Positions 32,923 through 57,278 of a stretch of DNA of 64,000 bases are shown here, one piece after another. The stretch is taken from contig JAZOWX010000015.1 in assembly GCA_045659405.1 (NCBI GenBank), positions 9,143-73,142 of the forward strand. Reading direction: 5' to 3'. This DNA comes from Eubacteriales bacterium. Its GTDB lineage: Bacteria; Bacillota; Clostridia; Oscillospirales; CAG-272. Made by a program: the position numbers and the translations under genes. Under the pieces are notes generated by a model. The model saw only the letters and a program-made list of their open reading frames with translations, did not search any database and was not told where the DNA came from. Within the stretch, counting starts at the first letter, position 1; each line of letters begins with the position of its first letter.

Positions 32923-35900
32923 TTATGCTTCGGGAGCTATAATGGTAAGTGTGTACTCACCGCCACCCATAGGATATACAAGGAATATGAATTCCTGACC
33001 TGCTTCTGCAGTGAAGTTCATAACAACACTCGGACCCTCGAGAACATAGTTGACGTTGTTAGTATATTCAATAGTATACTGACCAGCTACCTCAGCAGTA
33101 AAGGTCCAGTTAACGCCCATCATAGCCTCAGCCATACTTGCTGTTGCGGTGTTAGCGCCAACCTGCAAAACATTTCCGTTGGATTCTACTTCGGAATCGC
33201 CTTCGCCCTCGGATTCGGGAGCAGCGATGTTAAGGGTGTATGTACCTGCCACCTCAGTAATAAACTGTGCGCTGATAGTAAGAGTGTAGGTCACGCCTGC
33301 CTCAAGGGTTGCATAACCGGACTCATAGTTAACAGGTGTAGTACCGATTGTTATAGAAACAATATACAAATCGTTGCTGGAGATTTTGAAGTCACCGGAA
33401 ACCTCAGGTGTGAAGGTGTAATCTGCGCCAAGGAGTGCGCCAAGCTCATCCTCGGAAACAACAACATCGTTAGAGCCTACGTTAAGAACTACGCTGTTTG
33501 TGTTTTCATCGCCTTCGCCCTCGCCCTCGTTATCCTCGGTGGCTTCAGCAGTAAAGGTGATATCGTATACAACCATCTCTCCGCCAAGATTCATAACGTA
33601 CTTCCAGCTACCTGCAAGAGTTGTGGTGTCGTCATCCGAATACTTAATCATAATCTTCTCATAAGGAGCGGCATTGATAGTCAATACACCGTCAACAAAC
33701 TTAAGAGCGTAAGTATCATTGAAGCTTGCTACTTCTGTACCGTTATAAATGGTAATGTTTCCGTCTGCATCGATTGTGTAAGTATATTCGCCCTGGTTAA
33801 GTGAGGAGTTGATGTCGGTGGTAACGGTAACGGTATTGCCCGAAACGGTCTCGCCGCCCTCTTCTTCACCGTCGTCTTCAGTAGCCACGGGAGTATACTC
33901 AACAAATACGTTGTAATCAAATACTTCAGCAAGGATTTCCAAACCAAGAACAATTCTCTGCTCGGCATCTACCTCAAACGAGAGGATACCTGCAACGCTC
34001 ATTCCGTTTACAACGAAGTTAGCCTTGTCAGAATCTGCAATAAGGCTTCCGTCCACAAAGTCGCACATATAAATTACATACTTACCGGGAAGCGCATTAA
34101 GTGCAAGCTCTATAAGCTCGGGAGCTACACCGCCCTCGAAGGTCCAGTTGTAAATGTTGGTAGGCATATCAGCGCTGATATCTATGGGCCATACGTATTT
34201 CTCAACCTCGAGTTCAGCCTTGCCGTAGTCGTAGAAGATCTCTTGATCATACTCAATCTCGCCGTTGCCTACATACAGGCTGGAGAAGCCGGCATCGTAT
34301 CTGTACGTAACTGTTGCGCCTGCGCCAAATGCGGTAGTTTCGCCAACGTTAGCCGCACCCTCGGTAGCGGTAATGGTTATGTGATAAGCATACTCGTCTT
34401 CATCGAACTCGCCTATAACGTAGTCGAAGTAGAACTCAACGCCCTCTGCCTTGAATACGCCTGTACCGTCAGCATTGAAGGTGATGAAATATTTGTTAGT
34501 AAATTCGAAGGTTTCCATATCGAATTCTCTGTATACCCAAGTTCCGACAAGAGCGCCCTCAGCTGTTTCTTTTGAAAGAACGTTGCCGTCTATTTCAAGC
34601 TCGTAATTCTCGTTTACGATTACAGATACGTCAAAGTCATATCCGCCTTTAAGCTTGGTTACAAGACCGTCATCGGTCCACTCATAAGAATACTCTGCAT
34701 CATAGAGCTTCCAGATTTGTGCCTCGTCATCATAAACAACGTGTGTAAGCTTGAATGTTCCGAACCAAGAATCAAACTCAACCTCGTATACGTTTATACC
34801 GTCAACGGTGTATACGTACTTGCCGTCAAGAAGCTCATTCATATCGGGAGCTGCCTTAACTATAACGGTTACAGTCTGGGTAAGAGTCTCGTCTGCCTCG
34901 GATGTGAATACGATCTCATACTCACCGGCTTCAGCAGTATCAAGGATAAGAGCGTTTATGTAATCCATTCCGTACTCGGCATCAACGCCTATTTCAGAAA
35001 GAGTAGCTGCAACGCCGTTTACAGTTACTATGCAATTTCTGTTATCACCCTTGTCAGTAGCACCCATAAGAATTACGGGGCTGCCTGCCCAAACGGTAAT
35101 TTCGGAAGAAGCTGCGGAAGCAACGTATGCATAGTAATACTCATCCCACCACTCGTTGTAAAGCTCTTCTTCTTTGTAGCTGTTAACGATAACCTCGGTA
35201 GGAACAGCTTCTGTATTGTTAATAGTAAGTGCCTTCTCAACACCGTTTACTACAAGTGTGATTTCAAACTCGCCTGCAGTATATCCGTTAACCTTGATAG
35301 CCCAGTTTCCGTCCTCGTCCTCGGTAACAAAAATGTACACATCAAAGTTATCAGCAGCTTCGCCGATTGCATTTACTTCTATAAGATCAATAATTGCTGT
35401 TTCGGGGAGAATCTCTGTAAGATACAGATATACGGGAGTGCCGATTTCAACATTCAAGATGCTGCCAATCTCAACGCCCTCAGCATCTACAATCTTGAAG
35501 GAGCTTGCAAGAATTTCATCTGCGGGATAGGGATTTTCAACCTCAACGTTCTGTGCGAACGTGTAGTCCATTATGCCGTATCCCTCTGCGCCCTCTGCTA
35601 CTGCATAAGTAGGCTCATCATCCTCGGTTGCGCCGGGGACAATAACGTATTCCATAATAGTTTCATACGTATCCCAGTCAAAGGACTCACCGTAAGACTT
35701 GATGCTTACGTTTGCATTCTCGATGTAGTACTCATCGGAAAGCTCAAAATCAACGTTAACTACGTAGAACGTACCGTCGAAGAAGTAGCCGTAAGAGAAT
35801 GCGAATACGCCATCCTCAACGCTGCTCTCAAGGTCGCCGTTCCAGTCGTCCTTACCAAGCTCCCAAAGGCCTACAACAAGCTCTTCAAGGCCGTAGTAGT

Positions 35901-36830: not shown

Positions 36831-38303
36831 TCATTTTTCCACGTAGTAACCGCAGGCAAACAGCCATTGGTCCTCCTCATCCGCAAAGACGTTAAAGCCC
36901 TCTACCCAGCCGTCTCCGTCACGGAAATAAAGCTGTGATATGCTGAACTTCTGTAAGAAATCCTTAAGCTCCTCGGTTACCTTATACACACCGTCGGAGT
37001 TGCAATACGTGGCGTATCCCTGCGCCTCTACACTGCCGGCATAATAGTTAAACTGCTCCTCGGTCAGAGTGTCTAACCAAACGTCCCATTCACTGACTAT
37101 CGCACTCCAACCCTTTATGAAGAGCGAATAGTCCTCGGTGGCGCTTATCTTCAGAGAATTGTTATCAAGCTCAATGCCCGCAAGCGAGCGGTCAATGTAA
37201 AGCGTCGGAGCATTTATCTTTGCATAGAGGATAGGTCCGTCATAAGCTCCGCTTTCCTCGTTGTAAAGGCAGTAGCAGCCAAGCTCATCGTTATATCCGA
37301 AGCGGGATGCGTCATAGAGCTTTATACCGCCGACGCTGGTATAAGCCTCGGTGTAGGTGTATCGGGTTTTGTCATAGTCCTGCGCCCGCTCAAATCTCTC
37401 GGTGGGAATTACCATTTCACAGTCGGTAGCCGGCGGGTCTATATAACCGTCACGCTTTACCGCAAATATAATTTTCTGTGGGTATTTTCCGCTGATTTCC
37501 GAAAGCTTGACGCCAACAGTATAGGTGTTTCCGACAAACCTGTCACCGGTTTCGATTTCGTGGAAAAAGTTTTTGGTATAGGTTGAAGACGCAGCGCCGT
37601 CGTCAACGGTATGCGATAGCCACTTTGCCGCAAATGTTCCGTTATAAATCTCAAGCGAGGGGTTAACCGTGTTTTCGGTTACGTCAACCCAGGACTCAAT
37701 CGTATAAGTTCCGCTCCTTGTAGGAGTAAGCTCGAAATAAGCCACCTGCGAGGCACGCTTGATTTCAACCGAGTAAATACCCGTGCCGCTTATCTTGAAG
37801 CAGTTATAAAGGCTGGAGCCCGTAGAGCTTGTGACACCTCTGATTTTTGAAATCTCAAAAAGCTCGATTTCAATATCTCTTTTGTCGTTTGTGGCAACGT
37901 AAATGTTGGGATTGTAGGCATATCCGTCGGGCACGGAGCTTATAGTAACACGGTAGTCACCGTCAAGCCCCTCCACCGAAGCGACTCCGTCAACCAGCTC
38001 CTGCACGTGATAGGTGAAGCCGTCAGTCCATTGAACGAATATCGTCTGGTCCTCATCGGGGATAAATTGCTCGCCGTCAAAGACAAGCTTTACCGTAAAC
38101 GGCTCTGCCCCATCTTCGGGGTCGGTGGGCTCGCTCGGTATCTCAACAACCGCACCGCACTTGTCGCAAATTCCGCTTTTATCGGTATCTCTGTGCGGGG
38201 GGCAAGGATCTGCTTGGGGTGTTGTGGGTGGTGTATAAACACCCTCGCAGGAGGAAAGCGCCAAAAGCGTCAGCGCAAGAATTAAGCTCAAAAATCTTTT
38301 CAT
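36831..38303 (-). CDS. Lipoprotein (490 aa) sharing the N-terminal HxDxDxxGxCDxCG module
   Basis: Lipobox 'LALSSCEG', then 'CPPHRDTDKSGICDKCG'. Its start overlaps the upstream stop (ATGA). Confidence 0.8.
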   Translation of the reverse strand: MKRFLSLILALTLLALSSCEGVYTPPTTPQADPCPPHRDTDKSGICDKCGAVVEIPSEPTDPEDGAEPFTVKLVFDGEQFIPDEDQTIFVQWTDGFTYHVQELVDGVASVEGLDGDYRVTISSVPDGYAYNPNIYVATNDKRDIEIELFEISKIRGVTSSTGSSLYNCFKISGTGIYSVEIKRASQVAYFELTPTRSGTYTIESWVDVTENTVNPSLEIYNGTFAAKWLSHTVDDGAASSTYTKNFFHEIETGDRFVGNTYTVGVKLSEISGKYPQKIIFAVKRDGYIDPPATDCEMVIPTERFERAQDYDKTRYTYTEAYTSVGGIKLYDASRFGYNDELGCYCLYNEESGAYDGPILYAKINAPTLYIDRSLAGIELDNNSLKISATEDYSLFIKGWSAIVSEWDVWLDTLTEEQFNYYAGSVEAQGYATYCNSDGVYKVTEELKDFLQKFSISQLYFRDGDGWVEGFNVFADEEDQWLFACGYYVEK

Positions 38304-40942
38304 CTTTTCCTCCTTTGCTGCCCCTTGCCAAAGAGGCTGACTATATCACGCCACTTAAGCTTTCTTATTATTATATCAGCAACGTACATCGCAGCAGCCG
38401 CAGCCATAAGCGGAAGAACGAGAGAGTACGTGTATCTTGCAATCTCGGACTCGTCGTTTTCGAGGCTCGGAAGCTCGTCTGTGAGAACAGCTCCTCTGTT
38501 TCTCATAGCCATATAAAGAGAAACCGGATCAAAGCTCTCAAAGCTGTTGTACTCGGGAGCGTAAGAAAGGTTGAAGTACTTTGTTGATGCGTACTGTGAC
38601 TCTGCGTATGAATAATCCACGTCTATCTTGTATTTTCCGAGCATATCGGTTGCAAAGGAATAGCTGTAACCCGAAAGCGCAAAGCTCGGCTGTACTGTAA
38701 CCTCACTGCCGTCAGGGTGGGTGACGGTAAGGATAAGCGTCGCATTCGGCTTTACGGTAATCGGACTAACCGTTACCTCTGCATTTATTCCGTCGTAGGA
38801 AACCGTGATATCAAGCGGCAAATCCCTATGCTCTGTCGGGATGTTTTCGGAAAACAGGTTTTTCATAAAGGTCTCGCCTGCCCCGCTGCGCCAATCCGAG
38901 GTCCATTGCCCCGAAAGGCTTGACGTAAAGCTCGAAACCCTACCGTTTCCGTAGCTCCAATAAGCGTAAAGCGGTACAGAAACCGAGCCGCCGCCCGCCT
39001 TGTTATAAACCGTAGTCAGAACCGTCGTAGCGCTCGCCTTTGGCTTTGCAAAAACAAAGCCGTGTATATCGGGAAGCTCTCCAACGCCCGACATTACACC
39101 GTCGAGCCGCTTGTTAACCTTTACGGGTGAGCGCCCCTCTATGACGCTCTCGGTAATATCGTCTGCCATCTCGCCAAGCACAAGCTCGGAAAGCTCTCGC
39201 TCGTCAATAATCCAGTAATAGTCACCAAGACCTGCCGCCGCAATATTCTCCATTACGTCAGTACCGTCATCATCTCTGTTCGGGTCGTCAACCTCGCCTA
39301 CGCAAAGGGCGGATACCGAAATATTTGCCGCTGAAAGGTCGGTAGCTATTTCAATCGGGTTATCCTTTTCATTCGTATAGGAAATACCGTCGCTTATAAG
39401 CATTATCTGCTTTTTATCAAAGGGCTGGGACAGCATTATATCCGCCGCCTCCGAAAGCGCCGCACCGATAACCGTACCCTGCGTCGGAGCAAGGCTGTCT
39501 ATAACGTCGCAAAGCTTTTCATAGTTTTTCGCCTGTGTGGGCGCTTGAGCTACCGAAATCCTACCCGCAAAAGAAACTATCGCAACGTAGTCGTCGGGAG
39601 AAAGAAGCTCAATTATCTGCTTTGCCGCCGCTCTCGCCATTATAAGCTTTGAGTTAAGCTGCATACTTCTTGAGGTATCTATAACTATTGTAAAGAGCTT
39701 GCTGTCCTGGTCGTTGTTTCCAAAGCGGACGGGAAGCATATCCTCAAGCTGTGAGAGCACGTCCTCGGTTTTGTTCTGTATTTTCGTATCACCCATTACG
39801 ACAAGGCTTTTGCCGAATACCGACACCGCAGTATCAACAGCGTCAATAAAGGCTGTGAAATTGTTAAGCTCACGCACGTCAACGTCCGAAAGCACAATCT
39901 CGTCGTACTTACATATCGCCTCGGGTGAGGTGGGAACGTTTCTGTTGTTTATATATGCGTCGATATTTGCGCCCTCACCGAAAAGCTCGCGCGCTCTGTC
40001 AAGATCCCCGACGTTCGTAGAAACGAGAAGCACCTCTATAACACCCTCAACCGATTGGGTGAAGCTGTATGAATTGTTTTTGTTGCTCTCATCCCTCGGG
40101 GCGGACACCGTAACTGTGTAGTCATAGTCGCCCTGAAGCTCTGTAAGCAAACTAAAGTTTACAATATTGTATCCACGGGTAAGCTGAACAGCCAAATTCT
40201 GCACTCTCTGCCCGTTGCATTCGAGGCTTACTATTGCCTCTGTATCGTAAGAGGATTGCACCAGCACGTCTGCACTTACCTCGTGATTGAGATAGGTGTT
40301 TTCGGTGAAATCAACGTCGCTTATCTGCACCTCTTTTGCATCGTCCGAAATATTGTTATCGAGATATACCGCATCAATCTTTATACCGCGGACGTGGAGC
40401 GATTCGATAGCGGTTACAAGCTCTCCGTCAAAATCAGGATTTGTCTGCTTGCCGTCTGTTATAAGAACAATCCGCTTTATGGAGCTGTCCGAGAAAAGAG
40501 TGCCTGTATATTCCAGCGCCGAAACTATATCGGTTGCGCTGTCGTCAACACCCGAATCGCCAACGGTGACAAAATCCCCGCCGAGCGGTGTATGAAGCTT
40601 ATAGTCCTTACCGAACGTGACGACACCGAGCCTTCCGTTTACGGGTAAATCGTCACGAAGAGAGTTTATATATCCGTCAATTTTGTCGAGGTTCTTTTCA
40701 CTCGATGCCGATACGTCGGCAAGTACGTAAACCTCGGTTTCGGTGATTACCGTAGTAATTGCCGCACCGCCCACCGCAAGCGACACAAGGAGCGCTATTA
40801 CTATATGAATAATAAACGACGCTCTGACGTTTTTATCCCTGTTGCTCTTTCTTATGGCAATAAGATAAGGAATGATTACGAGGAGTATGAGCGGGATAAA
40901 TATGAGTAGGTAAAGCGGATTATCGAAGCTGATACTTGTCAT
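38300..40942 (-). CDS. Membrane protein with a BatA-like N-terminus and two VWA domains
   Basis: ATG at 40942. 'FDNPLYLLIFIPLILLVIIPYL' N-terminal TM helices. VWA-1 has a degenerate MIDAS ('LADVSASS'). VWA-2 has an intact MIDAS ('VIDTSRSM'). C-terminal TM helix. Confidence 0.8.
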   Translation of the reverse strand: MTSISFDNPLYLLIFIPLILLVIIPYLIAIRKSNRDKNVRASFIIHIVIALLVSLAVGGAAITTVITETEVYVLADVSASSEKNLDKIDGYINSLRDDLPVNGRLGVVTFGKDYKLHTPLGGDFVTVGDSGVDDSATDIVSALEYTGTLFSDSSIKRIVLITDGKQTNPDFDGELVTAIESLHVRGIKIDAVYLDNNISDDAKEVQISDVDFTENTYLNHEVSADVLVQSSYDTEAIVSLECNGQRVQNLAVQLTRGYNIVNFSLLTELQGDYDYTVTVSAPRDESNKNNSYSFTQSVEGVIEVLLVSTNVGDLDRARELFGEGANIDAYINNRNVPTSPEAICKYDEIVLSDVDVRELNNFTAFIDAVDTAVSVFGKSLVVMGDTKIQNKTEDVLSQLEDMLPVRFGNNDQDSKLFTIVIDTSRSMQLNSKLIMARAAAKQIIELLSPDDYVAIVSFAGRISVAQAPTQAKNYEKLCDVIDSLAPTQGTVIGAALSEAADIMLSQPFDKKQIMLISDGISYTNEKDNPIEIATDLSAANISVSALCVGEVDDPNRDDDGTDVMENIAAAGLGDYYWIIDERELSELVLGEMADDITESVIEGRSPVKVNKRLDGVMSGVGELPDIHGFVFAKPKASATTVLTTVYNKAGGGSVSVPLYAYWSYGNGRVSSFTSSLSGQWTSDWRSGAGETFMKNLFSENIPTEHRDLPLDITVSYDGINAEVTVSPITVKPNATLILTVTHPDGSEVTVQPSFALSGYSYSFATDMLGKYKIDVDYSYAESQYASTKYFNLSYAPEYNSFESFDPVSLYMAMRNRGAVLTDELPSLENDESEIARYTYSLVLPLMAAAAAMYVADIIIRKLKWRDIVSLFGKGQQRRKR

Positions 40943-42767
40943 AGCAATACACCATCCAATCCGCAGAAAATACAACGGCAAGGCACACGAAAAGCATAAT
41001 CAGCTCGTCGTATATTCCGTCGTGTCCGGTATTCTGTGCCACACCGATAAGCGAGAGCTGACCGCCGGACTCGCTGACGTTGCGCTCGGATGCGGGAAGC
41101 TCGGAAAATACGTTCATCACCCTTTGCGAGCCGCTGACCGTCATCGTAACCTTATACGTGCCGACCTCAGAGAGGGCAAAGCTTGCCACCTCTGCTCCGA
41201 CGTTAAGGTAGGATACGTTTCCGAGCGGGCTGTCAATCCTTATTCCCTCACAGCCTGCTACGGTATTTACCGATGCCACCTCACCGACAGAATAAAGAGT
41301 TTTTTCAATCACTGTCGGGAATGAGTAATCAATAAGATTACGGGTAAGAGTTATAAAATCGGGAGAGAGCGGGAAATTCGAGTTGTGCAAATCAAATGCA
41401 AACACAGCCTCACGGTTTCCGTACTCTGTATTCCCTGTGAAAACGATAGGATTTCCCTTGTAGGAAAGAAGCGTTGAGAAGTTGCGGTTAAGTCCGATTT
41501 TCTGATATTTGAGAAGCGCAAGATCAGCGCCCGTCATACCCTCGGTAAGCTTTTTGACAAGCGACTGGCTTGAGTCTGACAGAGTAACGTCGCCCGCATA
41601 ATCAAGCTCAACCTCACCCTGCACGGTGAAGCCTGCGCCCTGTATGCTTCCGATAGGGTTGATAAACCAAACCGTACCGTCACGCGGGAGCGTATCGGGT
41701 ACAAAGCCGTCGAATATGTAAAGACCGTAGCCGCTCTGCGCATCAAAGTCCTCTGTCGGTATAACCGTCATATCGGCATATCCAACCGAGGAAAGCGCCG
41801 TCTTTATAAAGAAGGGTGCGTCGCTGACAATAAGCGTATCATAAGAATTCTCACTCTTTACGCTGTAAAGGATAACGCTGTTATCCAAGGGCTGTGAGTC
41901 CTCGCAGTCAATCTCAACACGCATTTTTTCGAAGCCTGCCGTATTTGCAACAAGCGAAAACGGCTGCGGCTCACCGTATACCTCAAGCGTAACCGAAGCA
42001 ACAGGCTCTGCAACGTTATCAACGTAAAGCTTTACCGTAAGCTCCGAAGCTCCCGAATACGAAACCAGGTTACCGATAACCGTGGTTTTTCCCTCGCTCT
42101 CGGATATCGCATAGCTGACACCGTCGAGCGCATAGTTTGTCTCGGCACCCGACACGTCAAGCACGCTTATATTCTCTGCCACAGCATAGCTCTTATCGGT
42201 AGCAAAGTAGGTAAGCGTTGCGGGATTTTCCGAAAAATACTGCTGTGCTATATCAAGAGCGCCCTCCAGGTTTGCCTGTGCATATCCAACCCTTGCGGTT
42301 GAAATAAGCTCCGCCGCAACCTCCTTGTCCTCGGTTTTGCTGAACAAAACGGTTGGGGTATCGGTTGCAAGTATAAGAGAATACCTGCTGCCCTCGGTAG
42401 CGCCGTCGATAAGCTCCAGAATTTTATCCTTTGCCTTATCAAATCTGCTGCCCTCGGAGCTGTTTGCCGACATACTTCCCGAAGCGTCAAGAACAAAGCA
42501 ATAATCCCTTGCGGCACCCGGTAAGGTTATTACGGGGTGCGCTATGGCAAGTGACATTGCGCCAATCGCCAGAATCTGCAAAAGGAGCGCTATAAGACCT
42601 GCAAAGCTCGAAAATCTCCGTCTCTTTTTGAGGAAGCGGTTACTGAGCGTCCACAGGTAGGTTGAAGCCACAGTTTGCTCTGTATATTTACTTTTAATAA
42701 TATAAATGATTATCAGAATCGGTATTCCGATAAGACCAAGCAATCCGTACGGATGGAGAAAATTCAC
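40920..42767 (-). CDS. BatA-like VWA domain membrane protein
   Basis: 'MNFLHPYGLLGLIGIPILIIIYIIK' (aerotolerance-regulator-like N-terminus), MIDAS 'VLDASGSMS' and a C-terminal TM helix. Confidence 0.8.
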   Translation of the reverse strand: MNFLHPYGLLGLIGIPILIIIYIIKSKYTEQTVASTYLWTLSNRFLKKRRRFSSFAGLIALLLQILAIGAMSLAIAHPVITLPGAARDYCFVLDASGSMSANSSEGSRFDKAKDKILELIDGATEGSRYSLILATDTPTVLFSKTEDKEVAAELISTARVGYAQANLEGALDIAQQYFSENPATLTYFATDKSYAVAENISVLDVSGAETNYALDGVSYAISESEGKTTVIGNLVSYSGASELTVKLYVDNVAEPVASVTLEVYGEPQPFSLVANTAGFEKMRVEIDCEDSQPLDNSVILYSVKSENSYDTLIVSDAPFFIKTALSSVGYADMTVIPTEDFDAQSGYGLYIFDGFVPDTLPRDGTVWFINPIGSIQGAGFTVQGEVELDYAGDVTLSDSSQSLVKKLTEGMTGADLALLKYQKIGLNRNFSTLLSYKGNPIVFTGNTEYGNREAVFAFDLHNSNFPLSPDFITLTRNLIDYSFPTVIEKTLYSVGEVASVNTVAGCEGIRIDSPLGNVSYLNVGAEVASFALSEVGTYKVTMTVSGSQRVMNVFSELPASERNVSESGGQLSLIGVAQNTGHDGIYDELIMLFVCLAVVFSADWMVYCYDKYQLR

Positions 42768-43648
42768 TTCAATACTCCCAAATTTTCCATTTTGCCGAAG
42801 AATACGTCCGAAAGCTCCTCGTCCGCCCCGACAAGTATATATCCGCCCTCACGAGCCATAAGGTAGTTTCTCAACCTACCGGTTGCATACCCGACAGCGT
42901 CTCTGTAAGCGGCAATAATATCTCTGTTTACGTTTTTGCGGTAGGTTTTCTCAATATTCTCCGAGTCGTAAAGCTGTACCCTGCCCGAAAGGTCGGGGGA
43001 GATTTCGCTCGGTGAAAGCACCTGAACACAAAGCACGTCACGGCGCTTATCCGTAAGATAATCTATCGCATTTTCATAATTGTCGTCGGTGAGGAAATCC
43101 GAGATAATAACCGAAAGTCCGTCAGCACGTCCGACGTTTGTTTTAAGTATAGCCTCGCTGATTTTGCAGTCACCCGAAAACTCAAGCTCGTTAAGCTTTC
43201 CGATAACGGTAATAAAATTGTCACGCCCGATAACCGAGCTTACAATAGGTCGAACCTCACCGCCCGACATGGCAAAAACAGACACCTTTTCCATTGCCGA
43301 TACCGAAATGTAGGCAATCGCCGCAGCGAGCTTTACCGCCATTTCAGCCTTTCCACCGTCGCCAAAATCCATAGAACGGCTGGTGTCAATGTAAATTTTT
43401 GTGTGCATCTGCCGCTCATCAAGATAAAGCTTCTCGTAAAGCTTCTCTGTTCTGGCATACACGTTCCAATCTATTTTGGTTATATCATCGCCGGGCATAT
43501 AGTCCCTGTAATCGGCAAACTCACAGGACGAGCCGAAGCTCTTACTTTTTCTGTTACCGCCGAAAGCGCCCGCCGAATTATGCTTTAAGAGAAGCTCCAA
43601 GCGCTCAAGACGCTCAAGAAAGCCCTCGTTTATAACTACGTTTTTCAT
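42764..43648 (-). CDS. DUF58 domain protein
   Basis: 'FADYRDYMPGDDITKIDWNVYART' is the DUF58 hallmark. Positioned directly after MoxR. Confidence 0.85.
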   Translation of the reverse strand: MKNVVINEGFLERLERLELLLKHNSAGAFGGNRKSKSFGSSCEFADYRDYMPGDDITKIDWNVYARTEKLYEKLYLDERQMHTKIYIDTSRSMDFGDGGKAEMAVKLAAAIAYISVSAMEKVSVFAMSGGEVRPIVSSVIGRDNFITVIGKLNELEFSGDCKISEAILKTNVGRADGLSVIISDFLTDDNYENAIDYLTDKRRDVLCVQVLSPSEISPDLSGRVQLYDSENIEKTYRKNVNRDIIAAYRDAVGYATGRLRNYLMAREGGYILVGADEELSDVFFGKMENLGVLK

Positions 43649-43657
43649 TACCCTGCG

Positions 43658-44701
43658 TTAAATTCTGCTTTTTGTGACGAGCGAGGTTTTAACCGTCTTT
43701 TTCACGGTAATCGGAGTCTTTCTGTTTTCCTTAACCAGAAGCGAGATTACGTCGTCAACCGAAAGCCCCTCGTTTGCGGCGGTATAGTTTATCTTAAGTC
43801 TGTGGCGAAGCACGGGTGCGGCAAGCGCATCAATGTCGTCGTAGGAAACGTTATAGTTCCCTCTCATAAGCGCTCTTACTTTAGCCGAGGTTATAAGCGC
43901 CTGCGCAGCTCTCGGAGATGCGCCGTACCTTATGTATTTTTTGGCAACCTCTGTGGTTTTTTCAAGCTCGGGGTGCGTTCCCGAAACAAGGTTTACGGCA
44001 TAGTTCATAACCTCGTCAAGCACGGGCACCTCTGACGACAGCTTACGCATAGTCAGTATTTCCTCACCGTTAACCACCGCTTCTGCAACCTCGTCAAGCG
44101 TTACCTGCGTCATCTTAACGATATCGACAAGCTCACTCGTCGAGGGGAATTTCATAATCAGCTTGAACACAAAACGGTCCATCTGCGCCTCGGGAAGAGG
44201 ATACGTACCGTCCTGCTCCACGGGGTTCTCGGTAGCCAACACGAAGAAGGGCTCTTTAAGCTTGTAGGTCTTATCCGCTACGGTTATCTTATGCTCCTGC
44301 ATTACCTCAAGCATTGCCGACTGCGTTTTCGGTGTCGCGCGGTTAATCTCGTCCGCCAGGACAAGGTTTGCGAATATCGGGCCGGGACGGAATACGGTCT
44401 GCATTTTTCCCGATTCGTCCTTTTCGATTACGTTTGCGCCCGTAACGTCAGAGGGCATAAGGTCGGGTGTAAACTGTATACGTGAAAACGGCAGATTGAG
44501 AACACGGCCAAGCGAGCGGACAAGTCTTGTCTTTCCGACACCGGGTACACCTTCAAGCAGTACGTTTCCGCCTGCTATAATTGCTATTATAACGTTTTCA
44601 ACAATCTCGTCCTGACCAACCACGTCACGGCGAAGCTGTTCTTTTATCTTATTTACTTTAACGCTGAAATTGCGTACGCTCTGTTCTGTGCTTATACTCA
44701 T
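43658..44701 (-). CDS. MoxR family AAA+ ATPase
   Basis: Walker A 'LLEGVPGVGKT', Walker B 'LADEINRA', 347 aa. Confidence 0.9.
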   Translation of the reverse strand: MSISTEQSVRNFSVKVNKIKEQLRRDVVGQDEIVENVIIAIIAGGNVLLEGVPGVGKTRLVRSLGRVLNLPFSRIQFTPDLMPSDVTGANVIEKDESGKMQTVFRPGPIFANLVLADEINRATPKTQSAMLEVMQEHKITVADKTYKLKEPFFVLATENPVEQDGTYPLPEAQMDRFVFKLIMKFPSTSELVDIVKMTQVTLDEVAEAVVNGEEILTMRKLSSEVPVLDEVMNYAVNLVSGTHPELEKTTEVAKKYIRYGASPRAAQALITSAKVRALMRGNYNVSYDDIDALAAPVLRHRLKINYTAANEGLSVDDVISLLVKENRKTPITVKKTVKTSLVTKSRI

Positions 44702-46179
44702 TGTTCTTCTCCTTTGCCGTCCTCTTTTGCGGCACCGTCATAAAGGCTTTCAAAATATTTTTGTAAGCTTGCGGCAAGCTCCTCTGAAATCTCGCCTGCA
44801 AGAATTTTTTCGGTGATTTTCGCATAGTACTCGTCGATAACCTCGCCGTACTGCACGTATTTTTCCTCGTCGGGGTAATAAATGACATCGTCGCTGCCGT
44901 ACATCATATCTCCGCTGCCATAGCCGCCGGAATCACCCTTTTGCTCCTCGTCGTCGTCACCCTCGGGCGGCTCTGTCTCCTCACCGCCGCCTGACGGCTT
45001 GCTTATCTCCTCTTCAACCTCGGGCGGAAGCTCGTCTTTGGATATACCGAAGATTTCCATAAGTCGGTTCACCGTATAAAGTCCGACCTCGGCATTTACC
45101 TTTTGCTCCGCAAGCGCTACCTCAAGCGAAAGCGTGAAGGACGCAAACAGCGAATCAACCGCTCCCTGTATACTGCCGTCGTCGTAATCCGAAATATTAT
45201 CGCTTATAGCGAAAAGTCCGTCAGAAAACGAATGAAGCGCCAAGGTCAAAGGGTCGCTCGCAAGCGAAAGTCTGCCAAGCGTTATCGCTATATCAGTACC
45301 GAGCGTCACAAGCACGGGATTAATCTCCACAACACCGCCCTCGGCAAACAGCGCACGAAGCACCGCAAGATTTTCCGTCGGTATCGGAGAGTCGGGAGTG
45401 CCTATCGCATCGGCAAGCTCGCTCATACCCGAAGCCTCGCTCAATCCGAATGCGGCGGTTATTTCATCATAGGTATTTGCGGTGTTTATCGCAAGATTTA
45501 CGTTCTTTATAGCACCTATTACAAGCGTTCTCATCTCTCTGTCAAGCTTGGTTGTACGAAGATTAACCAAAAGTCCCTCAAGCTCGTCGGTTACAGCCGC
45601 CTTTGCCGAATCACGAAGCTCTGAATCCTCGACGTATTCAATGAGGTTTAAAAGCGCGGTTTCCTGCCACTCGGTAAGCTCAAACGGAGCTTCGGGCGGC
45701 GGAGGTGTGGGCGGTATTTCCTTGTCAGGCACGAGGTATGCAAACGAGCACAGCGCAAGCGAAAGAACAAGGAATACGGTATAAATCCAGATACGCTTTA
45801 CAGCGTAGAAATCCAGCGGAAGCTTACCGAGAAGCTTTTCGGTTTCTTTACGCTGAAGCTTTACCATGCTGTTCCTGCGCTCGTCCTTAAAGGCTATCAT
45901 CGTTTGCGCCTTTTCGTTCAGCTTAAGCTCACGGTCTATGAGCCTTGCCGCCGTTTTGGCTCTCGGTGTGAGGATTATGCACCATAAAATGAAGCAAACC
46001 GCTCCGACAGCGCCACCGATTGCAAGCGCAAGCATCAGGTTATCGTCTATAACGTTAAGCTTCCCAAGAAGCAGCACGGCAGCCGCCGAAAGCAGCGCCA
46101 AAGAAAGCCCAAGAATCAGGCTTTTCAAGAAAACGCCACGGTTTATCTTGCGTTTGAATTTTTTAAAACCGCTTCTCAT
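44698..46179 (-). CDS. Membrane protein of unknown function (first gene of the MoxR operon)
   Basis: 493 aa. Two N-terminal TM helices and a third near residue 135, a Pro-rich segment 'PPTPPPPEAP' and an acidic Gly-rich tail. Its stop overlaps the MoxR start by 4 nt. Confidence 0.7.
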   Translation of the reverse strand: MRSGFKKFKRKINRGVFLKSLILGLSLALLSAAAVLLLGKLNVIDDNLMLALAIGGAVGAVCFILWCIILTPRAKTAARLIDRELKLNEKAQTMIAFKDERRNSMVKLQRKETEKLLGKLPLDFYAVKRIWIYTVFLVLSLALCSFAYLVPDKEIPPTPPPPEAPFELTEWQETALLNLIEYVEDSELRDSAKAAVTDELEGLLVNLRTTKLDREMRTLVIGAIKNVNLAINTANTYDEITAAFGLSEASGMSELADAIGTPDSPIPTENLAVLRALFAEGGVVEINPVLVTLGTDIAITLGRLSLASDPLTLALHSFSDGLFAISDNISDYDDGSIQGAVDSLFASFTLSLEVALAEQKVNAEVGLYTVNRLMEIFGISKDELPPEVEEEISKPSGGGEETEPPEGDDDEEQKGDSGGYGSGDMMYGSDDVIYYPDEEKYVQYGEVIDEYYAKITEKILAGEISEELAASLQKYFESLYDGAAKEDGKGEEQ

Positions 46180-46316: not shown

Positions 46317-46345
46317 ATTTTAACAAACACTTTACCTTTTGTCAA
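46317..46345 (-). promoter_or_regulatory. Candidate sigma-A promoter for the MoxR operon
   Basis: On the - strand: TTGACA, a 17-nt spacer (aaaggtaaagtgtttgt), then TAAAAT. It lies about 130 nt upstream of the start at 46179. Confidence 0.4.
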
Positions 46346-47162: not shown

Positions 47163-48521
47163 TTAGTTTTTCAGAGAGTGAATAGGCGCAGGGATTCTTC
47201 CGCCGCGAGCGATAAATTTCTCACAGGATTTGCCCTTTATGGGCATAATCGGAGCATATCCGAGCAAGCCGCCAAACTCTGCCGAATCACCGACGCTCTT
47301 ACCGACAACGGGTATTACTCTTACCGCTGTCGTCTTGTTGTTGATAACACCGATGGAAATTTCATCTGCGATAATTCCGGATATAGTTGATGCAGGTGTA
47401 TCACCCGGTATGGCTATCATATCAAGGCCAACCGAGCAAACAGCCGTCATCGCCTCAAGCTTATCGAGGGTGAGCGCACCGTCTGCCGCTGCGGCTATCA
47501 TTCCTCTGTCCTCCGACACGGGAATAAATGCGCCCGAAAGACCGCCTACGTGGTTGGATGCCATAACACCGCCCTTTTTGACAGCGTCGTTAAGAAGTGC
47601 TAGCGCTGCTGTCGTTCCGTGAGCGCCTGTCATTTCAAGGCCCATATTTTCGAGTATCTCGGCAACAGAGTCGCCCGCCGCAGGTGTGGGAGCGAGAGAA
47701 AGGTCAACTATACCGTAGGGTGTGCCGAGCCTTTTTGATGCCTCGGAGGCAATAAGCTGTCCGACACGGGTTATCTTGAACGCAATGCGCTTTACCGTCT
47801 CGGCAAGAGCGGAGAAATCACATTCACCCGCCTCTTTTATTGCCGCAGCAACGACACCCGGTCCGCTGACACCGACGTTTATAACCGTATCAGGCTCACC
47901 GATGCCGTGAACAGCGCCCGCCATAAACGGGTTATCCTCGGGAATGTTGGCAAACACAACAAGCTTTGCACAGCCTATGGAATCACGGTCTGCGGTAAGC
48001 GCCGCTGTCTTTTTTACTATCTCGCCCATTTTTTTGACAGCGTCCATATTTATGCCCGCCTTGGTGGTGGCGACGTTTATCGAGGAGCATATTCTCGTTG
48101 TGGTTGCGAGCGCCTCGGGAATTGCCTCTATGAGGTTTTTCGCACCGAGCGTTTCGCCCTTCTGCACGTGGGCGGAAAATCCGCCGATAAAGTTTACGCC
48201 AAGCGTATCTGCCGCACGCTCAAGAACCGCCGCAAGTCTTACAAAGCCCTCGGGCGAAAGTCCTGCGCCTATATAGGAAAGCGGTGTTACCGATATTCGC
48301 TTATTTACAATCGGAATACCGTACATACGCTCAAGCTCCTCGCATACCGAGACAAGCCTGCCCGCAGATTTGGTTATTTTATCGTATACCTTAACCTCAA
48401 GACGCTCGGGGTCGTCGGATATACAGTCAAAGAGCGAAATACCCATCGTTACGGTTCGTATATCGAGGTTTTGCTCCTTTATCATCTCAATGGTTTCAAG
48501 AATATCACCGGCATTTATCAT
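47163..48521 (-). CDS. UPF0210/DUF711 (PFL-like) protein
   Basis: 452 aa. The N-terminus '[24 protein letters not shown]' is typical of UPF0210. Paired with an upstream ACT protein. Confidence 0.8.
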
Positions 48522-48912: not shown

Positions 48913-50925
48913 TTATTTCACGCCGATGCGCCTGATATTTTTAGGCTGATAGTCACCGCCCGAAAAATATGCCGAAGCCGTCCTGCTAATCTCCCCGGCA
49001 CTCTCAACCGAGAATATAAAATGCCCCGAGGAAATACCCGCCGAGCGAAGCTCGTCGGCTCTGTCAGCCATAAAGGTCACAGCAGAATTGAGTATAAGAT
49101 TTCTGTGGCGGTATTCACGCATAATCGGGAAGCGTGCGCCACGTCTGTCAACAAGCGGCATATCAGGGCATTTTCCCGAGCAGCCGCCACGCTTCATATA
49201 ACAGCGCTCTGTAATCATAAGCGGTATTCTGCCGTATACCGTAACTCTGCCGCCGATATCCCTCGCCCTTGGCAGGGTCAGCTCTGCTGAAAGCAGACTG
49301 TCGGTGACACCGAGCGCTGCGTATGCGGATTTTGCATATTTATTCGTTATGTTCAAACGGATATCGCCAACAGCCGAAAATCCAAGCTCACGGCAAAGCG
49401 GAATATGCGAAATGTTCGAAACAAGCGCATACCTAGCTCCGCAGGACTTTACCCTTGAGAGCCTCTCTTTTACCTCGCCAAGCTCGGAATCAAAAATCAC
49501 GGGCGGTATATAAACACCCCATCTGCCGCTTTCGGCTTCGGGCGAAAACAGCGGCACGAAGAGCTTGTCAAACTGCGACAAAATTCGCACGTCAAGCTCG
49601 GAAATAATCGCAGGGTTCAAAAACAGCGCTGAGTTTCCTGCGATAGGCTTCGGATATTTTTCATACGAGAGCGTCGGAATTTCAACTCTTTCTCTTTCAC
49701 AGCCAAGAAATCCGTGACACGCCTCACGGCGAAGTGCGTTTATTGCCGATACGGGAAGATTTATACCCGTATCAAGCTCCAGCTCAATATCCGCCTCGCA
49801 AAGCGAGAGCGGTGTTGCTCCGGTTTTCGAAAGACGGCTGCGCACAGCGTCAAAATCCAGCGGACTAGATATTGCCGCACTCGGCACAGCTCCAAAGGCG
49901 GTATAAGAGCGATTCTCGGTATATACCGTAAGCTCCGACGGGCAGCCGAGCTTTATTTTCGCTATGGCCCGTACGGGGAGCTTTTTCTCCTCAAACCTGA
50001 TTTCCCCTGACAGCTCACGGCTCTGCGCCTTGTCCTTGTCGGTGCGCACGCCCTCCATTGCCTCAAGCTTGCCGACGAAATATCCGTCTGTGAAGCCGTC
50101 TCTTGAAAACGCAAGGCGGAGCTTTTTTTCCTCGGTGGGTGTTGCGCATCTGCCCTCGTCAAGAAGTCGGCGGTATATCGAGGTCACGGTATATACGTAT
50201 GCCGGGGATTTCATTCTTCCCTCAATTTTGAGGGATGCGACACCCGACGCTATAAGCTCGGGGATATGAGCGCTGAGCGACAGGTCGGAAAGCGACAGCC
50301 TGTAACCCCCCTCATAAGGCAGACGGCAGGGCTGGGCGCACTCGCCACGGTTTCCGCTTCTGCCGCCGATAAGCGAGGAAAAGAGGCACTGCCCCGAATG
50401 GCAAACGCAAAGCGCACCGTGAACAAAGACCTCGGTTTCGGGGCGGCAGGCGTCTGTTGTGGACCTTATATCCGACAACGACAGCTCACGTGCCAGCACC
50501 ACTCGCTGACAGCCGAGGCTGTGCGCCATATCAGCACCGGGTGTGTTATGCACCGAAAGCTGTGTTGAAGCGTGAACCTCAAGCTTCGGCAAATACCTGC
50601 CTAGAGCGGATATAAGGCCCACGTCTTGGCATATAACCGCATCAACGCCTATTCTGTAAAGCTCGGCGCAATATTTAACCGCATCTTCCATCTCCTTGTC
50701 AAAAAGAAGCGTGTTAACCGTAACGTAAAGCTTTACCGAATACAGGTGGCAATACTCCACCGCACGGCTAATCTCATCAATATCAAAATTTTTTGCAAAC
50801 GCCCTCGCACCAAAGCGAAGACCGCCGATATACACGGCATCCGCCCCTGCCGAAACGGCAGCGACAAGACATTCAAAATCTCCCGCCGGCGAAAGCAGCT
50901 CGGGCAGCTTTTCTTTTCTTCTCAT
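48913..50925 (-). CDS. U32 family peptidase
   Basis: 670 aa. 'PELLSPAGDFECLVAAVSAGADAVYIGG' and 'ELSLSDI...VFVHGALCVCHSGQCLFSS' are U32 hallmarks. Confidence 0.8.
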   Translation of the reverse strand: MRRKEKLPELLSPAGDFECLVAAVSAGADAVYIGGLRFGARAFAKNFDIDEISRAVEYCHLYSVKLYVTVNTLLFDKEMEDAVKYCAELYRIGVDAVICQDVGLISALGRYLPKLEVHASTQLSVHNTPGADMAHSLGCQRVVLARELSLSDIRSTTDACRPETEVFVHGALCVCHSGQCLFSSLIGGRSGNRGECAQPCRLPYEGGYRLSLSDLSLSAHIPELIASGVASLKIEGRMKSPAYVYTVTSIYRRLLDEGRCATPTEEKKLRLAFSRDGFTDGYFVGKLEAMEGVRTDKDKAQSRELSGEIRFEEKKLPVRAIAKIKLGCPSELTVYTENRSYTAFGAVPSAAISSPLDFDAVRSRLSKTGATPLSLCEADIELELDTGINLPVSAINALRREACHGFLGCERERVEIPTLSYEKYPKPIAGNSALFLNPAIISELDVRILSQFDKLFVPLFSPEAESGRWGVYIPPVIFDSELGEVKERLSRVKSCGARYALVSNISHIPLCRELGFSAVGDIRLNITNKYAKSAYAALGVTDSLLSAELTLPRARDIGGRVTVYGRIPLMITERCYMKRGGCSGKCPDMPLVDRRGARFPIMREYRHRNLILNSAVTFMADRADELRSAGISSGHFIFSVESAGEISRTASAYFSGGDYQPKNIRRIGVK

Positions 50926-54298: not shown

Positions 54299-55665
54299 TC
54301 GGTATCTCCGTTTCACAGTTTTCTGCGGCTTGTAAGGCTACAATATTTTTGCATATTTATTCATTTTTGCGTTTTCAAACATCTGAGCTATCGAACTAAA
54401 AAAATCGCATCCAAAGGCGATGAGCTGTACAGCCACACAAACCGATATAAGCCAACATAAGAATTATACATCAACAAAGCGCAAAGGTCAAGAGCCGAAG
54501 CATCAATGGCAAAAAACAAAACCAAAAAACAGAAAAAACAAAACCAAAAACAAAAAGCAAAAAAACAAAAAGCAAAAGCAAAAAAACAAAATATCAACCG
54601 TCGCAATCAGTCACACAGAAAGCTGCCTAACGAGCGGCAAAGCCAAAAGCCGCAAAGCTCCCTCAAGCACCCTGCAAAAAAGAGGACAGAGCCACCGTTC
54701 AAAAGCGCCCCGAAAGTGTAGTACAAAAAGACGACCTAAAATCGCCCAAAAAGCACCCTAAAAGCGAGCACGAAAAAGAACAGCCAAAACTGCGCGCACA
54801 AAAAGAAGTACATCACCAGCATCACCCCAAAAGCGTAGTGCAAAAAGAAGAACAGCGCCAAAATTTGCACAGAACGCTTCGGATAGAAAAACGCAAAAAT
54901 CCAAAAAGTTCCGCTAACAGCAAAGCAAAAAACGCAGCAACCCAAAGGAAGCAGCTGCGATAAAGGGGCAAAAAGCACCCTACGTCTTGTCACACAAGAC
55001 ACAAATCCAAGGCAGGAAAAACAGGGAACGTCTGTGCTTATTTATTCTTCTCTGTGCATTTTTATTCACCAATATAAGGAAATTTACTTTCGCACAAATT
55101 ACGAATTAAGCCACAAATTCACAGCAAAAATCGGTGCAAAAATCAGCTTTAAAACACGCCCTTTCGTAAAAGTTACAATCAAAATATGCAAAAACGCCAA
55201 AAATTTGTGCAAAAATCACCCGAGCAAAACAAATTTTCCATTTTTTGTCATAAAAGCCCATATTTTGCCATATTTTACCTTTTAAATCGCAAAATTTGCT
55301 TTTTCTAACAAAAAGAGCTGCGAAGCGCCACGGATGCCTCAAAAAACAGCCAAAAAACACACTAAAAGATCAAAAAACGTGGCAAAATAGCGTAAAAACA
55401 CCGAAAGCATGTCAAAAATACATCAAAACACACTGAAATACCACCCGAAGACCACACCCAAACACACCGCAACGGTTTAAAAAAGGATAAAAAGCGGCAA
55501 AAACAGCAGTAAATATCGGATTTTTGGACAAAATCAGCGCAAATTACCGCAAAAAAACAAACAAAAAGTTGCAGAAAAGGCGGCAATTTCAGGTAAAGGA
55601 AGCAGAGCAACCGCCACGGCTCTTGGCACAGCCACAAGCATTTGCCAAGCCAAAGCGCAAGAAAA

Positions 55666-55681
55666 TGTTTCACGTGAAACA
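55666..55681. promoter_or_regulatory. parS site 1 (perfect)
   Basis: TGTTTCACGTGAAACA, matching the Firmicute parS consensus tGTTNCACGTGAAACa. Confidence 0.85.
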
Positions 55682-55879
55682 CCCAAAAATCAAGCTTTAC
55701 CCACAAAATAGCCATATTTTGCTCAAAAAACAGCGTTTACCTGCATTTTTTCACGGTTTTTGTGCGGATTTTACCGATTTTGAGCTGTTGTGTGGCTCAA
55801 AAAGCGCCCCCTTGGGGTGAAATGCAGCCAAACAGCTAGATTTCAATCGTATATACCACAGTAACACCAGTGGCGCAAT

Positions 55880-55895
55880 TGTTTCACGTGGAACA
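55880..55895. promoter_or_regulatory. parS site 2 (one mismatch)
   Basis: TGTTTCACGTGgAACA. An extra GTGAAAC half-site lies at 55899-55905. Confidence 0.7.
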
Positions 55896-55924
55896 TTTGT
55901 GAAACCATATAGTTATCGAGGATT

Positions 55925-55940
55925 TGTTTCACGTGAAACA
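55925..55940. promoter_or_regulatory. parS site 3 (perfect)
   Basis: TGTTTCACGTGAAACA. Confidence 0.85.
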
Positions 55941-56417
55941 TTCGGCTCATCCGGACAGCCACGAGGGCTTGTTTTGTGATAAAAATCCGATTGTCCAAGT
56001 GTTGTGCAGAGGCAACGTGTGCCAGAGGCGCAAAAGCGGATATATAGCTGTGTTTGACCGATTTTGTGTCTTTTCAGCGTTGTTTTGCAAACTTTGGGCG
56101 GATTTTATTGTGTTTTTGTTGCGTTTCGCCGTGCTTTTGATGCGTTTTTGCCGTTTTGTAGCCTTGTTCTCTGTTTTTTTACCACCAACAACCGCTCTTT
56201 ACAGGCTTTGAGCTTTGCTTGTTCAAAGCTGCGCCTCACCTGTTTCTTGATACTGCCGCATCAGCAACTCCTCAGCTCACAACCTCTCGGCGCACGCCCT
56301 CGGTTTACAAACCTTGACTTACAGCCCTCGACTTACAATACATAGCGCACAGCGCTCAAAAGCAACACCAGTGGGTTTAAGATTGTTTAAACTTATTTAA
56401 ACACCCACACAATTTGA

Positions 56418-56433
56418 TGTTTCACGTGAAACA
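56418..56433. promoter_or_regulatory. parS site 4 (perfect)
   Basis: TGTTTCACGTGAAACA. Confidence 0.85.
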
Positions 56434-56479
56434 TATAGCTTTGCGCAGAAAAAGCGGTCAATTCAGGCGCTTTGCGCCG

Positions 56480-56495
56480 TGTTTCACGTGAAACA
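56480..56495. promoter_or_regulatory. parS site 5 (perfect)
   Basis: TGTTTCACGTGAAACA. Confidence 0.85.
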
Positions 56496-56835
56496 TTTGC
56501 TTTTTTACATCTAGAAGCCGCCACTTGACTTTGAACAGCCTTTTATCTTTTGAAGTCGCTATACAAAACAACACAAAAAGAACACAAAAAGCAAACATAT
56601 AGATAAATAAAAATGAAACCGTACACAGCGCAACCAACAAGCGGGGTGGCAAGGAAATTCAAAAAAGAGAGCAAAGATATCACCAAAACATAGTACAAAG
56701 CAGCTCGAACCTTGCCAAAATACTTTTAACGGTCTTTTTTTGGTTATACTTCGCCATTGAGCTATTGATTTCCCCGGTTTTTCTTTGCTGTGCGTCAATT
56801 AATTACCCGTTTCGCTTTACTGTGCAGTGATAAAT

Positions 56836-57230: not shown

Positions 57231-57278
57231 AATTATGTGAACTTATAACTTCTAACCGATTGGAGTAGCTTTTATTCT

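Follow-up and report, generated by a model that had tools for sequence, protein, structure and literature searches.

On what does a MoxR-type AAA+ ATPase act when its operon also encodes a membrane protein and two large lipoproteins of no annotated family? The question is raised by seven genes (g1 to g7) on the minus strand of a stretch of 64,000 nucleotides from an Eubacteriales bacterium (contig JAZOWX010000015.1), which is called the window in the following. Operons of MoxR-proper ATPases with DUF58 and von Willebrand factor A (VWA) proteins, such as the Bat and Cmd operons, are very widespread; their clients and mechanism are still not known, and the published phenotypes of Bat and Cmd operons conflict, as they comprise aerotolerance, envelope integrity and none at all. 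Our analysis shows that the seven genes are a real operon which is strictly co-inherited and translationally coupled. As the best explanation we propose that they encode one envelope-spanning module, a Firmicute variant of the MoxR-proper/Bat/Cmd-type system; taken together with the mechanism proposed below, this explanation has in our view an even chance of being right. The core class was already known. New is its fixed extension by three unannotated families (g1, g6 and the g7-type proteins) in monoderm gut bacteria, so that a chaperone operon without known clients gains named candidates for partners. No paper describing this Firmicute cassette was found in the literature. The homologs stem exclusively from uncultured gut metagenome-assembled genomes (MAGs), and the evidence is comparative throughout.

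Conservation and layout of the operon

The operon comprises the following features, given with their positions in the window:

g1: 44698-46179, minus strand, membrane protein of 493 aa with three transmembrane (TM) helices, acidic
g2: 43658-44701, minus strand, MoxR-type AAA+ ATPase
g3: 42764-43648, minus strand, DUF58 protein (VWA-like)
g4: 40920-42767, minus strand, BatA-like protein of 615 aa
g5: 38300-40942, minus strand, protein of 880 aa with two VWA domains
g6: 36831-38303, minus strand, acidic predicted lipoprotein of 490 aa
g6-g7 spacer: 36661-36830, minus strand, 170 nt, A-rich
g7: 32923-36660, minus strand, very acidic predicted lipoprotein of 1245 aa
Sigma-70-type promoter-like site: 46317..46345, minus strand, TTGACA-17-TAAAAT with a TG extension
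Intrinsic terminator at the operon end: 32835..32874, minus strand, stem 32874..32845 of 13 bp with 8 G-C pairs, followed by TTTTATTTT

All seven genes are real, as many homologs exist for each of them. The homologs of g6 were aligned, 80 loci were fetched from GTDB representatives with one genome per species, and all seven window proteins were mapped onto these loci by tblastn. The genes g1, MoxR, DUF58, g4, g5 and g6 are colinear on one strand in 60 of the 60 loci with 8 kb or more of DNA upstream of the g6 homolog, and the 20 shorter loci agree with the cassette, without exception, as far as their DNA reaches. In none of the 80 loci was a g6 homolog found away from g5, although the loci come from two classes and the identity of g6 falls to 32-45%. 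The record titles of the loci name Clostridia (Oscillospiraceae, Christensenellaceae, Candidatus Scatosoma) as well as Bacilli (Erysipelotrichaceae, Anaeroplasmataceae, Coprobacillus). Two length-variant g6 homologs of 658 and 757 aa, which were looked up independently, both lie inside the cassette. The original prediction had proposed the association of the lipoproteins with the MoxR/VWA genes from the window alone, and this check of gene neighbourhoods bears it out: lipoprotein orthologs without MoxR/VWA neighbours were not found. Since the whole cassette is present at all g6 loci with enough upstream DNA, and since a large lipoprotein follows 3' of g6 in 53 of the 58 loci with enough DNA (same strand, at least 550 aa, lipobox at residues ~20-30, spacer to g6 usually 15-300 nt), we regard the lipoproteins as genuine dedicated components. 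The pairing of MoxR and DUF58 is kept in all 63 loci showing both genes, and g1 is the first cassette gene in every locus that shows the cassette start. The median identity to the window protein amounts to 75% for MoxR (range across loci 70-79%), 57% for DUF58, 46% for g4, 45% for g5, 36% for g6 and 30% for g1.

The gene order, junction positions, promoter-like site and terminator were found where the original prediction had placed them; only its count of four 4-nt overlaps has to be corrected to three (g1/g2, g3/g4 and g5/g6). The overlap of g4 and g5 is 23 nt long (40920-40942), and gaps of 9 nt and 170 nt separate g2 from g3 and g6 from g7, respectively. Across the loci, the 4-nt overlap of g3 and g4 is kept in 64 of 64 cases and the 23-nt overlap of g4 and g5 in 65 of 65, while the g5/g6 junction mostly measures -4 to +2 nt. 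The invariant g4/g5 overlap marks the ATG at 40942 as the start of g5. Shine-Dalgarno-like sequences are located upstream of g1, g2, g4, g6 and g7.

The promoter-like site in front of g1 (46345..46317) has 11 of 12 matches and ranks first in the 15.5 kb scanned; it implies a leader of ~130 nt. In the 170-nt spacer between g6 and g7, a terminator-like site was looked for and none was seen, as had been predicted; the spacer holds a single weak promoter-like site (36710..36681, 9 of 12 matches). A riboswitch or attenuator in the leader or spacer was considered and dropped, because the leader folds no better than shuffled sequences (z = 0.23) and the spacer not significantly better (z = -1.5), and a search of the whole window against Rfam gave zero family matches.

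The MoxR-DUF58 pair and the membrane proteins

The product of g2 matches AAA_3 (PF07726) with E = 9.3e-61 (score of 203.9 against a cut-off of 27 bits) and AAA_lid_2 with E = 2.2e-16. Its Walker A (GVPGVGKT) and Walker B (LADEINR) motifs are invariant in 64 of 64 sequences. With both domains, intact Walker motifs and an adjacent DUF58 partner, g2 fits the MoxR-proper (MRP) type. For g3, the DUF58 match has E = 1.5e-32, and the metal ion-dependent adhesion site (MIDAS) motif D-x-S-x-S is invariant (D88, S90 and S92 in 65 of 65 sequences). Topology prediction found neither a TM helix nor a signal peptide in g2 and g3, and 61 of the 65 g3 homologs have zero TM helices. By topology rules and the precedent of Borrelia BB0173, MoxR and DUF58 are therefore most likely cytoplasmic; this BatA-like protein has been found by experiment to possess three TM helices and a periplasmic VWA domain (PMC5700661).

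The two VWA membrane proteins are related to each other, with g4 being a paralog of the first, N-terminal third of g5 (hhalign probability 97.6%). In g4, a double-TM hairpin at the N-terminus is followed by the VWA domain, a further acidic domain of ~400 aa and a C-terminal TM helix. The matches are BatA_N (PF07584, E = 9.3e-11), TIGR02226 (25.0 bits, cut-off 23.05) and VWA_2 (4.5e-14), and the MIDAS motif DASGS is invariant among homologs. In g5, the hairpin is followed by VWA1 (DVSAS), a BatB-like VWA2 (DTSRS), a GATase1-like segment, beta-rich domains, a C-terminal TM helix and a K/R tail; the D-x-S-x-S motifs of both VWA domains are invariant among homologs. The nearest PDB sequences of VWA2 are the BatB-type structures 4jdu (E 1e-3) and 3ibs (E 1e-2), at weak E-values. 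The GATase1-like (PF07090) match at ~600-680 of the window g5 is likewise weak, with 18.1 bits against a cut-off of 27, and covers the C-terminal third of the model only. It recurs at the corresponding position in 8 of 9 g5 homologs, one of which reaches 27.8 bits, so that one of ten proteins is above the cut-off. Domain searches with Pfam and NCBIfam support the original assignment of the core as a MoxR-DUF58-VWA operon of Bat type without BatC to BatE: models for TPR, SH3 and BatD gave no match in the seven proteins and the flanking genes, and neither TPR nor BatD was seen in those homologous loci for which precomputed Pfam annotation exists.

The leading protein g1 consists of a K/R-rich N-terminus, three TM helices, a predicted cytoplasmic loop, a Pro-rich linker and an acidic ectodomain of ~330-340 aa. 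Its conservation peaks in the predicted cytoplasmic loop (residues 71-125, ~55 aa), where D82 is conserved in at least 95% of the sequences, and in a C-terminal motif at residues 418-482 (GGxGSG...YYPDEE...YGEVINEYYAK...KYFESLYDG). A distant relationship to DUF4175-like proteins, which a resemblance of this C-terminal motif would suggest, could not be substantiated and is not claimed. The protein had been described as novel. This holds in so far as no Pfam, NCBIfam or PADLOC family was matched, even at E <= 1 and with 16 g1 homologs included; however, g1 belongs to a large family of 619 clusters (50% identity) at E <= 1e-30.

Three hydrophobic helices are kept in each of g1, g4 and g5 (62-73 homologs). 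The short segments next to them are rich in K/R: at the N-terminus of g1, the median count is 5.5 for K/R and 0 for D/E, while the g4 hairpin loop contains 7 K/R in 33 residues and the g5 C-terminal tail 8 K/R in 22 residues. The large domains of the three proteins are strongly acidic. Applied to the K/R-rich segments, the positive-inside rule places the domains of 330 (g1), 510 (g4) and 780 residues (g5) outside the cytoplasm. Together with the BB0173 precedent, these topology rules suggest that the acidic domains of g1, g4 and g5, with three MIDAS sites, face outward, beside the putatively lipid-anchored g6 and g7.

The lipoproteins g6 and g7

Both g6 and g7 are predicted lipoproteins by virtue of their lipoboxes: LSSC in g6, with Cys19 invariant in the 83 g6 homologs, and MVGC in g7, with Cys21 at least 90% conserved in the g7 homologs. 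Their isoelectric points are 4.3 (g6) and 4.05 (g7). Neither protein matches a family of Pfam, NCBIfam or PADLOC, and the database homologs of g1, g6 and g7 are all named 'hypothetical protein' and come from MAGs of uncultured gut Clostridia, Oscillospiraceae and Bacilli. A profile of g6 searched against PDB sequences found nothing, and a profile of g7 gave Ig-like matches at chance level only.

The AlphaFold2 (AF2) model of g6, calculated from the alignment of 83 sequences, has a mean predicted local distance difference test (pLDDT) score of 86.5. It presents a module-bearing N-terminal linker, an Ig/prealbumin-like domain, a jelly roll, a small beta domain and a C-terminal alpha/beta domain, which ends with QWLFACGYY. 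The best PDB matches of the jelly roll in Foldseek are C-CPE, the claudin-binding C-terminal domain of Clostridium perfringens enterotoxin, and modules like carbohydrate-binding modules (CBM), at E ~ 2e-5 and a target TM-score of ~0.5.

In g7, His/Cys/Asp repeat modules at the N-terminus (~25-145) are followed by a chain of Ig-like beta-sandwiches (~150-700) and by a C-terminal half (750-1245) with PPC-like repeats. The N-terminal ~700 residues are conserved, and the C-terminal half evolves fast and was found in close relatives only. For residues 1-720, the AF2 model has a pLDDT of 76.7 overall, mostly 80-95 between 150 and 700 and below 50 in the modules. Best Foldseek matches are the S-layer proteins SbsC, SbsB and EA1 and the adhesins SraP, LigA, FdeC and intimin. 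Their TM-scores of 0.15-0.47 are low, as expected for a flexible chain compared globally. Modules of the SLH, CWB2 and LPXTG types were searched for in g7 by Pfam and not found; it has a lipobox instead.

A hidden enzyme in g6 or g7 was rejected, as the predicted structures show no enzyme fold; the g6 model was searched as a whole, and its C-terminal alpha/beta domain (residues 370-490) is left without an assigned fold. To judge from the models, both are probably non-enzymatic, binding-type beta-sandwich or S-layer-like proteins. They do not appear to be paralogs: the BLASTP similarity between them is limited to the short Cys module (E = 0.02).

A third, smaller lipoprotein of 310-460 aa often stands behind the large one, ~3-5 kb past g6, in many genomes (for example L081 15873-17069 and L083 15789-17114), sometimes with a weak CarboxypepD_reg match or one Cys module. 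It is missing in the window because the operon ends there at the terminator after g7.

Folds of a generic binding or S-layer-like kind would also suit surface proteins which are functionally independent (nutrient-binding, adhesin or phage-exposed coat) and are only co-transcribed with a MoxR-VWA module that has a housekeeping task in the envelope. The fast evolution of the C-terminal half of g7 is what is expected of an exposed surface protein, and the 170-nt gap with its weak promoter-like site 5' of g7 points in the same direction. However, g6 stands beside g5 in 80 of 80 loci, which is not expected for passengers, and in most genomes the start of g6 overlaps the stop of g5 or lies directly next to it. 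We therefore consider this explanation unlikely.

Cys/His-rich modules

According to the original prediction, the two lipoproteins share a metal-ligand-rich module. It is indeed present in both proteins of the window, as one H-x-D-x-D-x-SG-x-CD-x-CG module in g6 and as three copies and an HW..C unit in g7, but it is facultative. The single N-terminal copy in g6 is limited to the window's clade (9 of 83 homologs), and the g7-type proteins of Bacilli-labelled loci are devoid of the unit. In other g7-type proteins, a unit of ~45 aa (H-x-H...W..D...HW....C-x-H...H-x-D-x-N-x-DG-x-CD-x-C) occurs in 1-8 copies; within 20-kb loci it is almost confined to the lipoproteins 3' of g6. One g7 homolog passes the Pfam rubredoxin-type model. 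A second Cys-rich element was detected in 61 of the 83 g6 homologs (e.g. P0012-P0018), namely an insert with 7-9 Cys in the C-terminal domain at the position of residues 398-430 of the window g6. Its pattern, ...YFCxxxCPCWxxxxCPGACxEGCExCxxxCxPCP..., has a spacing like, though not identical to, a ferredoxin motif; the g6 proteins of the window's clade do not have it. This insert could represent a module for metal or disulfides outside the cytoplasm. The Cys/His module itself is real and may form either a metal site or disulfides.

Such Cys-rich lipoproteins might act as redox components, in a Bat-like role that protects the envelope of an obligate anaerobe against oxidative stress or keeps extracytoplasmic thiols reduced. 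The homology to BatA and BatB (BatA_N with E = 9e-11; BatB-type VWA domains as best PDB matches of g5) would suit this explanation, as would the ferredoxin-like spacing of the inserts in most g6 homologs, and Bat proteins as suppliers of reducing power to the periplasm are a hypothesis discussed in PMC5700661. On the other hand, neither BatC nor BatD nor BatE was found in the seven proteins and flanks, domains of thioredoxin, DsbD-like or cytochrome type were not found in any of the seven proteins with Pfam and NCBIfam, and the Cys inserts are facultative. Even in spirochetes the role in aerotolerance is unconfirmed (PMC3557215). We regard a redox function as improbable.

The original prediction had also nominated the lipoproteins as candidate substrates or partners of a MoxR/VWA chaperone system. 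As direct clients, they would be folded or loaded with metal at their Cys/His modules by a MoxR/VWA chaperone, comparable to NorQ/NorD, CoxD/E and the chelatases, and MoxR-VWA pairs are known as metal-insertion or maturation factors (PMC13036017, PMC3893208). The His/Cys/Asp modules in g6 and g7 of the window, their 1-8 copies in many g7-type lipoproteins, the Cys insert of the g6 homologs and the rubredoxin-type match could be read in this sense. Yet MoxR and DUF58 have no export signals, and lipoproteins cross the membrane unfolded via Sec, so that the ATPase cannot reach the mature lipoproteins. Moreover, the cassette is fully kept where the modules are lacking, i.e. with the Bacilli-labelled g7-type proteins and with 22 of the 83 g6 homologs. 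A direct action of MoxR on the lipoproteins is thus quite improbable. With MoxR and DUF58 predicted inside and the g4/g5 VWA domains and lipoproteins predicted outside, it is more likely that the lipoproteins are partners of the MIDAS domains on that side than direct clients of MoxR.

Conflict systems of the MoxR-vWA kind are described in PMC7159879. An anti-phage or conflict role of the cassette is extremely improbable, since bpMoxR of Pfam matches g2 (E = 1.7e-14) but is far outscored by AAA_3 (E = 9e-61), a beta-propeller or effector domain was not found, PADLOC models give weak AAA similarity only, and the cassette is a vertical-looking core with housekeeping flanks and not a variable island.

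Proposed mechanism of an envelope-spanning module

We return to the explanation that the seven genes encode one envelope-spanning module. That g1 to g6 form a single functional module is very probable, and the g7-type lipoproteins probably belong to it as well. With the VWA/MIDAS domains and the lipoproteins on the outer face, the lipoproteins and the acidic ectodomain of g1 would naturally serve as ligands for the three MIDAS sites on this side; for the lipoproteins, we see the chances of such a partnership as evenly divided. On the extracellular side, carboxylate side chains of the acidic g1 ectodomain, g6 and g7 would be held by the MIDAS sites in g4 and g5. Together, the g1 ectodomain, g4, g5, g6 and g7 would build a complex that is anchored in the membrane at the cell surface and has a role in binding, in adhesion or as a coat. 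Inside, DUF58 would dock on the MoxR hexamer, as modelled on NorQ/NorD and related VWA pairs, and its MIDAS would engage a cytoplasmic segment of the membrane proteins, for which the g1 loop with D82 is the best candidate. This follows the general mechanism of MoxR-VWA pairs (PMC13036017, PMC3893208). ATP hydrolysis might then drive the assembly or a conformational switch of the external complex across the membrane. This coupling step is drawn by analogy, and we put it forward as a tentative and doubtful part of the mechanism.

Several points weigh against this explanation. A cytoplasmic AAA+ motor that acts on an external assembly is without demonstrated precedent in the Bat and Cmd systems, and bat deletion mutants of Leptospira were without phenotype (PMC3557215). 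The topology is predicted, and the contacts between the proteins are putative. The least conserved component is g7 (23-30% identity), and with the 170-nt gap before it g7 may have its own promoter. In addition, uncultured MAGs are the source of all homologs.

A bolder version, which we consider on balance unlikely, sees in the cassette an 'inside-out' machine that is driven by ATP and works at the surface of monoderm gut bacteria. Here the MoxR-DUF58 motor would pull on the cytoplasmic loop of g1 and thereby, through the membrane, switch g4 and g5 to another ligand-binding state at their three external MIDAS/VWA sites. In analogy to integrin activation, the switch would control attachment or release of a lipoprotein surface layer or adhesin consisting of g6, g7 and further lipoproteins. 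If this is true, MoxR-proper/Bat operons would for the first time have a defined set of clients and a mechanism.

The predicted location of g1, g6 and the g7-type proteins on the outer side of the membrane, together with the MIDAS domains, leads to concrete and testable partner hypotheses. It also poses a topological puzzle sharply, with the motor in the cytoplasm and the assembly outside. The present analysis also gives a first annotation to protein families which abound in the gut metagenomes of animals, with more than 750 homologs for g6 and 619 clusters for g1.

Surroundings of the operon

The flanking genes are unrelated to the operon. Downstream, a Pot-like ABC transporter is encoded. 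Upstream, on the minus strand of the window, there are a DUF711 (UPF0210) gene at 47163-48521 (E = 1e-190) and a gene for a U32-family peptidase with a DUF3656 domain at 48913-50925; their adjacency to the cassette is not kept in other loci. Two plus-strand open reading frames (ORFs) antisense to g7, at 34717-36309 (530 aa) and 32878-33804 (308 aa), are most likely non-coding artefacts, because homologs back the minus-strand frame only. Farther away, a region of ~3 kb (54316-57279) is without any ORF of at least 120 aa on either strand. Its plus strand is A-rich (AT skew 0.28, GC ~0.41), and it contains low-complexity poly(A/C) sequence at 54510-54591 as well as a 63-bp tandem repeat in 3.1 copies at 56874-57073.

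Comparison with known systems

The closest parallels are found in the Bacteroides aerotolerance (Bat) operon and, among spirochetes, in the BatI-like clusters (Borrelia bb0170-bb0176, Leptospira batABD). Like these, the cassette encodes MoxR and DUF58 followed by two membrane VWA proteins, with the BatA_N double-TM hairpin, intact MIDAS motifs and a three-TM topology with extracytoplasmic VWA domain (BB0173, PMC5700661; predicted here), and the VWA2 domain of g5 is nearest in sequence to the BatB structures 3ibs and 4jdu. In contrast, it includes neither a TPR protein of the BatC/BatE type nor BatD and hence falls short of the full definition of a Bat operon. Furthermore, g4 and g5 are two to three times as long as BatA and BatB owing to extra ectodomains, the cassette is led by the acidic three-TM protein g1 and ended by the lipoproteins g6 and g7, and its host is a monoderm Firmicute.

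A MoxR-proper ATPase, DUF58 and two membrane proteins are also combined in cmdA-cmdD (RL3499-RL3502) of Rhizobium leguminosarum. One of these membrane proteins has the BatA_N/TIGR02226 hairpin and the other one the GATase1-like domain PF07090. Through the PF07090 match that recurs in g5, though at weak scores and with one of ten proteins above the cut-off, the cassette weakly resembles this architecture. Unlike the cassette, cmdA-cmdD is a four-gene operon of a diderm and lacks both a g1-like gene and genes for lipoproteins. As cited in PMC5700661 and PMC3893208, envelope and cell morphology are affected in a cmdA-cmdD mutant.

Within the Firmicutes, the MoxR-vWA-YebA operon (yeaC-yeaD-yebA in Bacillus subtilis) likewise couples a MoxR and DUF58-type vWA pair to a polytopic membrane protein, and it was proposed to act near the membrane (PMC3495828). 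However, a transglutaminase-like domain was not found by Pfam in the operon or its flanks, and the membrane partners of the cassette are VWA proteins with external domains instead of an eight-TM peptidase. NorQ/NorD, CbbQ/CbbO and RavA/ViaA share the principle of an AAA+ hexamer with a VWA/MIDAS adaptor that grips the target, and they served as the model for MoxR and DUF58 (PMC13036017, PMC3893208). They differ by belonging to other MoxR subfamilies (CGN, RavA), by targeting enzymes accessible from the cytoplasm and by having neither external VWA proteins nor lipoproteins. The cassette differs from the ternary MoxR-vWA-beta-propeller conflict systems, since no propeller was found, bpMoxR stays far below AAA_3 and the PADLOC similarity is confined to weak AAA matches.

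On the outside, g7 resembles S-layer and adhesin proteins in fold (SbsC, SbsB, EA1, SraP and LigA, at low TM-scores of 0.15-0.47). For the external VWA domains, the integrin I-domain and the VWA adhesins of Gram-positive pilus tips offer an analogy; no homology past the VWA fold is claimed, and the cassette is without sortase or pilin features. As an analogy only, both have an extracellular MIDAS VWA domain that binds acidic ligand residues, and in integrins the affinity is controlled from the cytoplasmic side.

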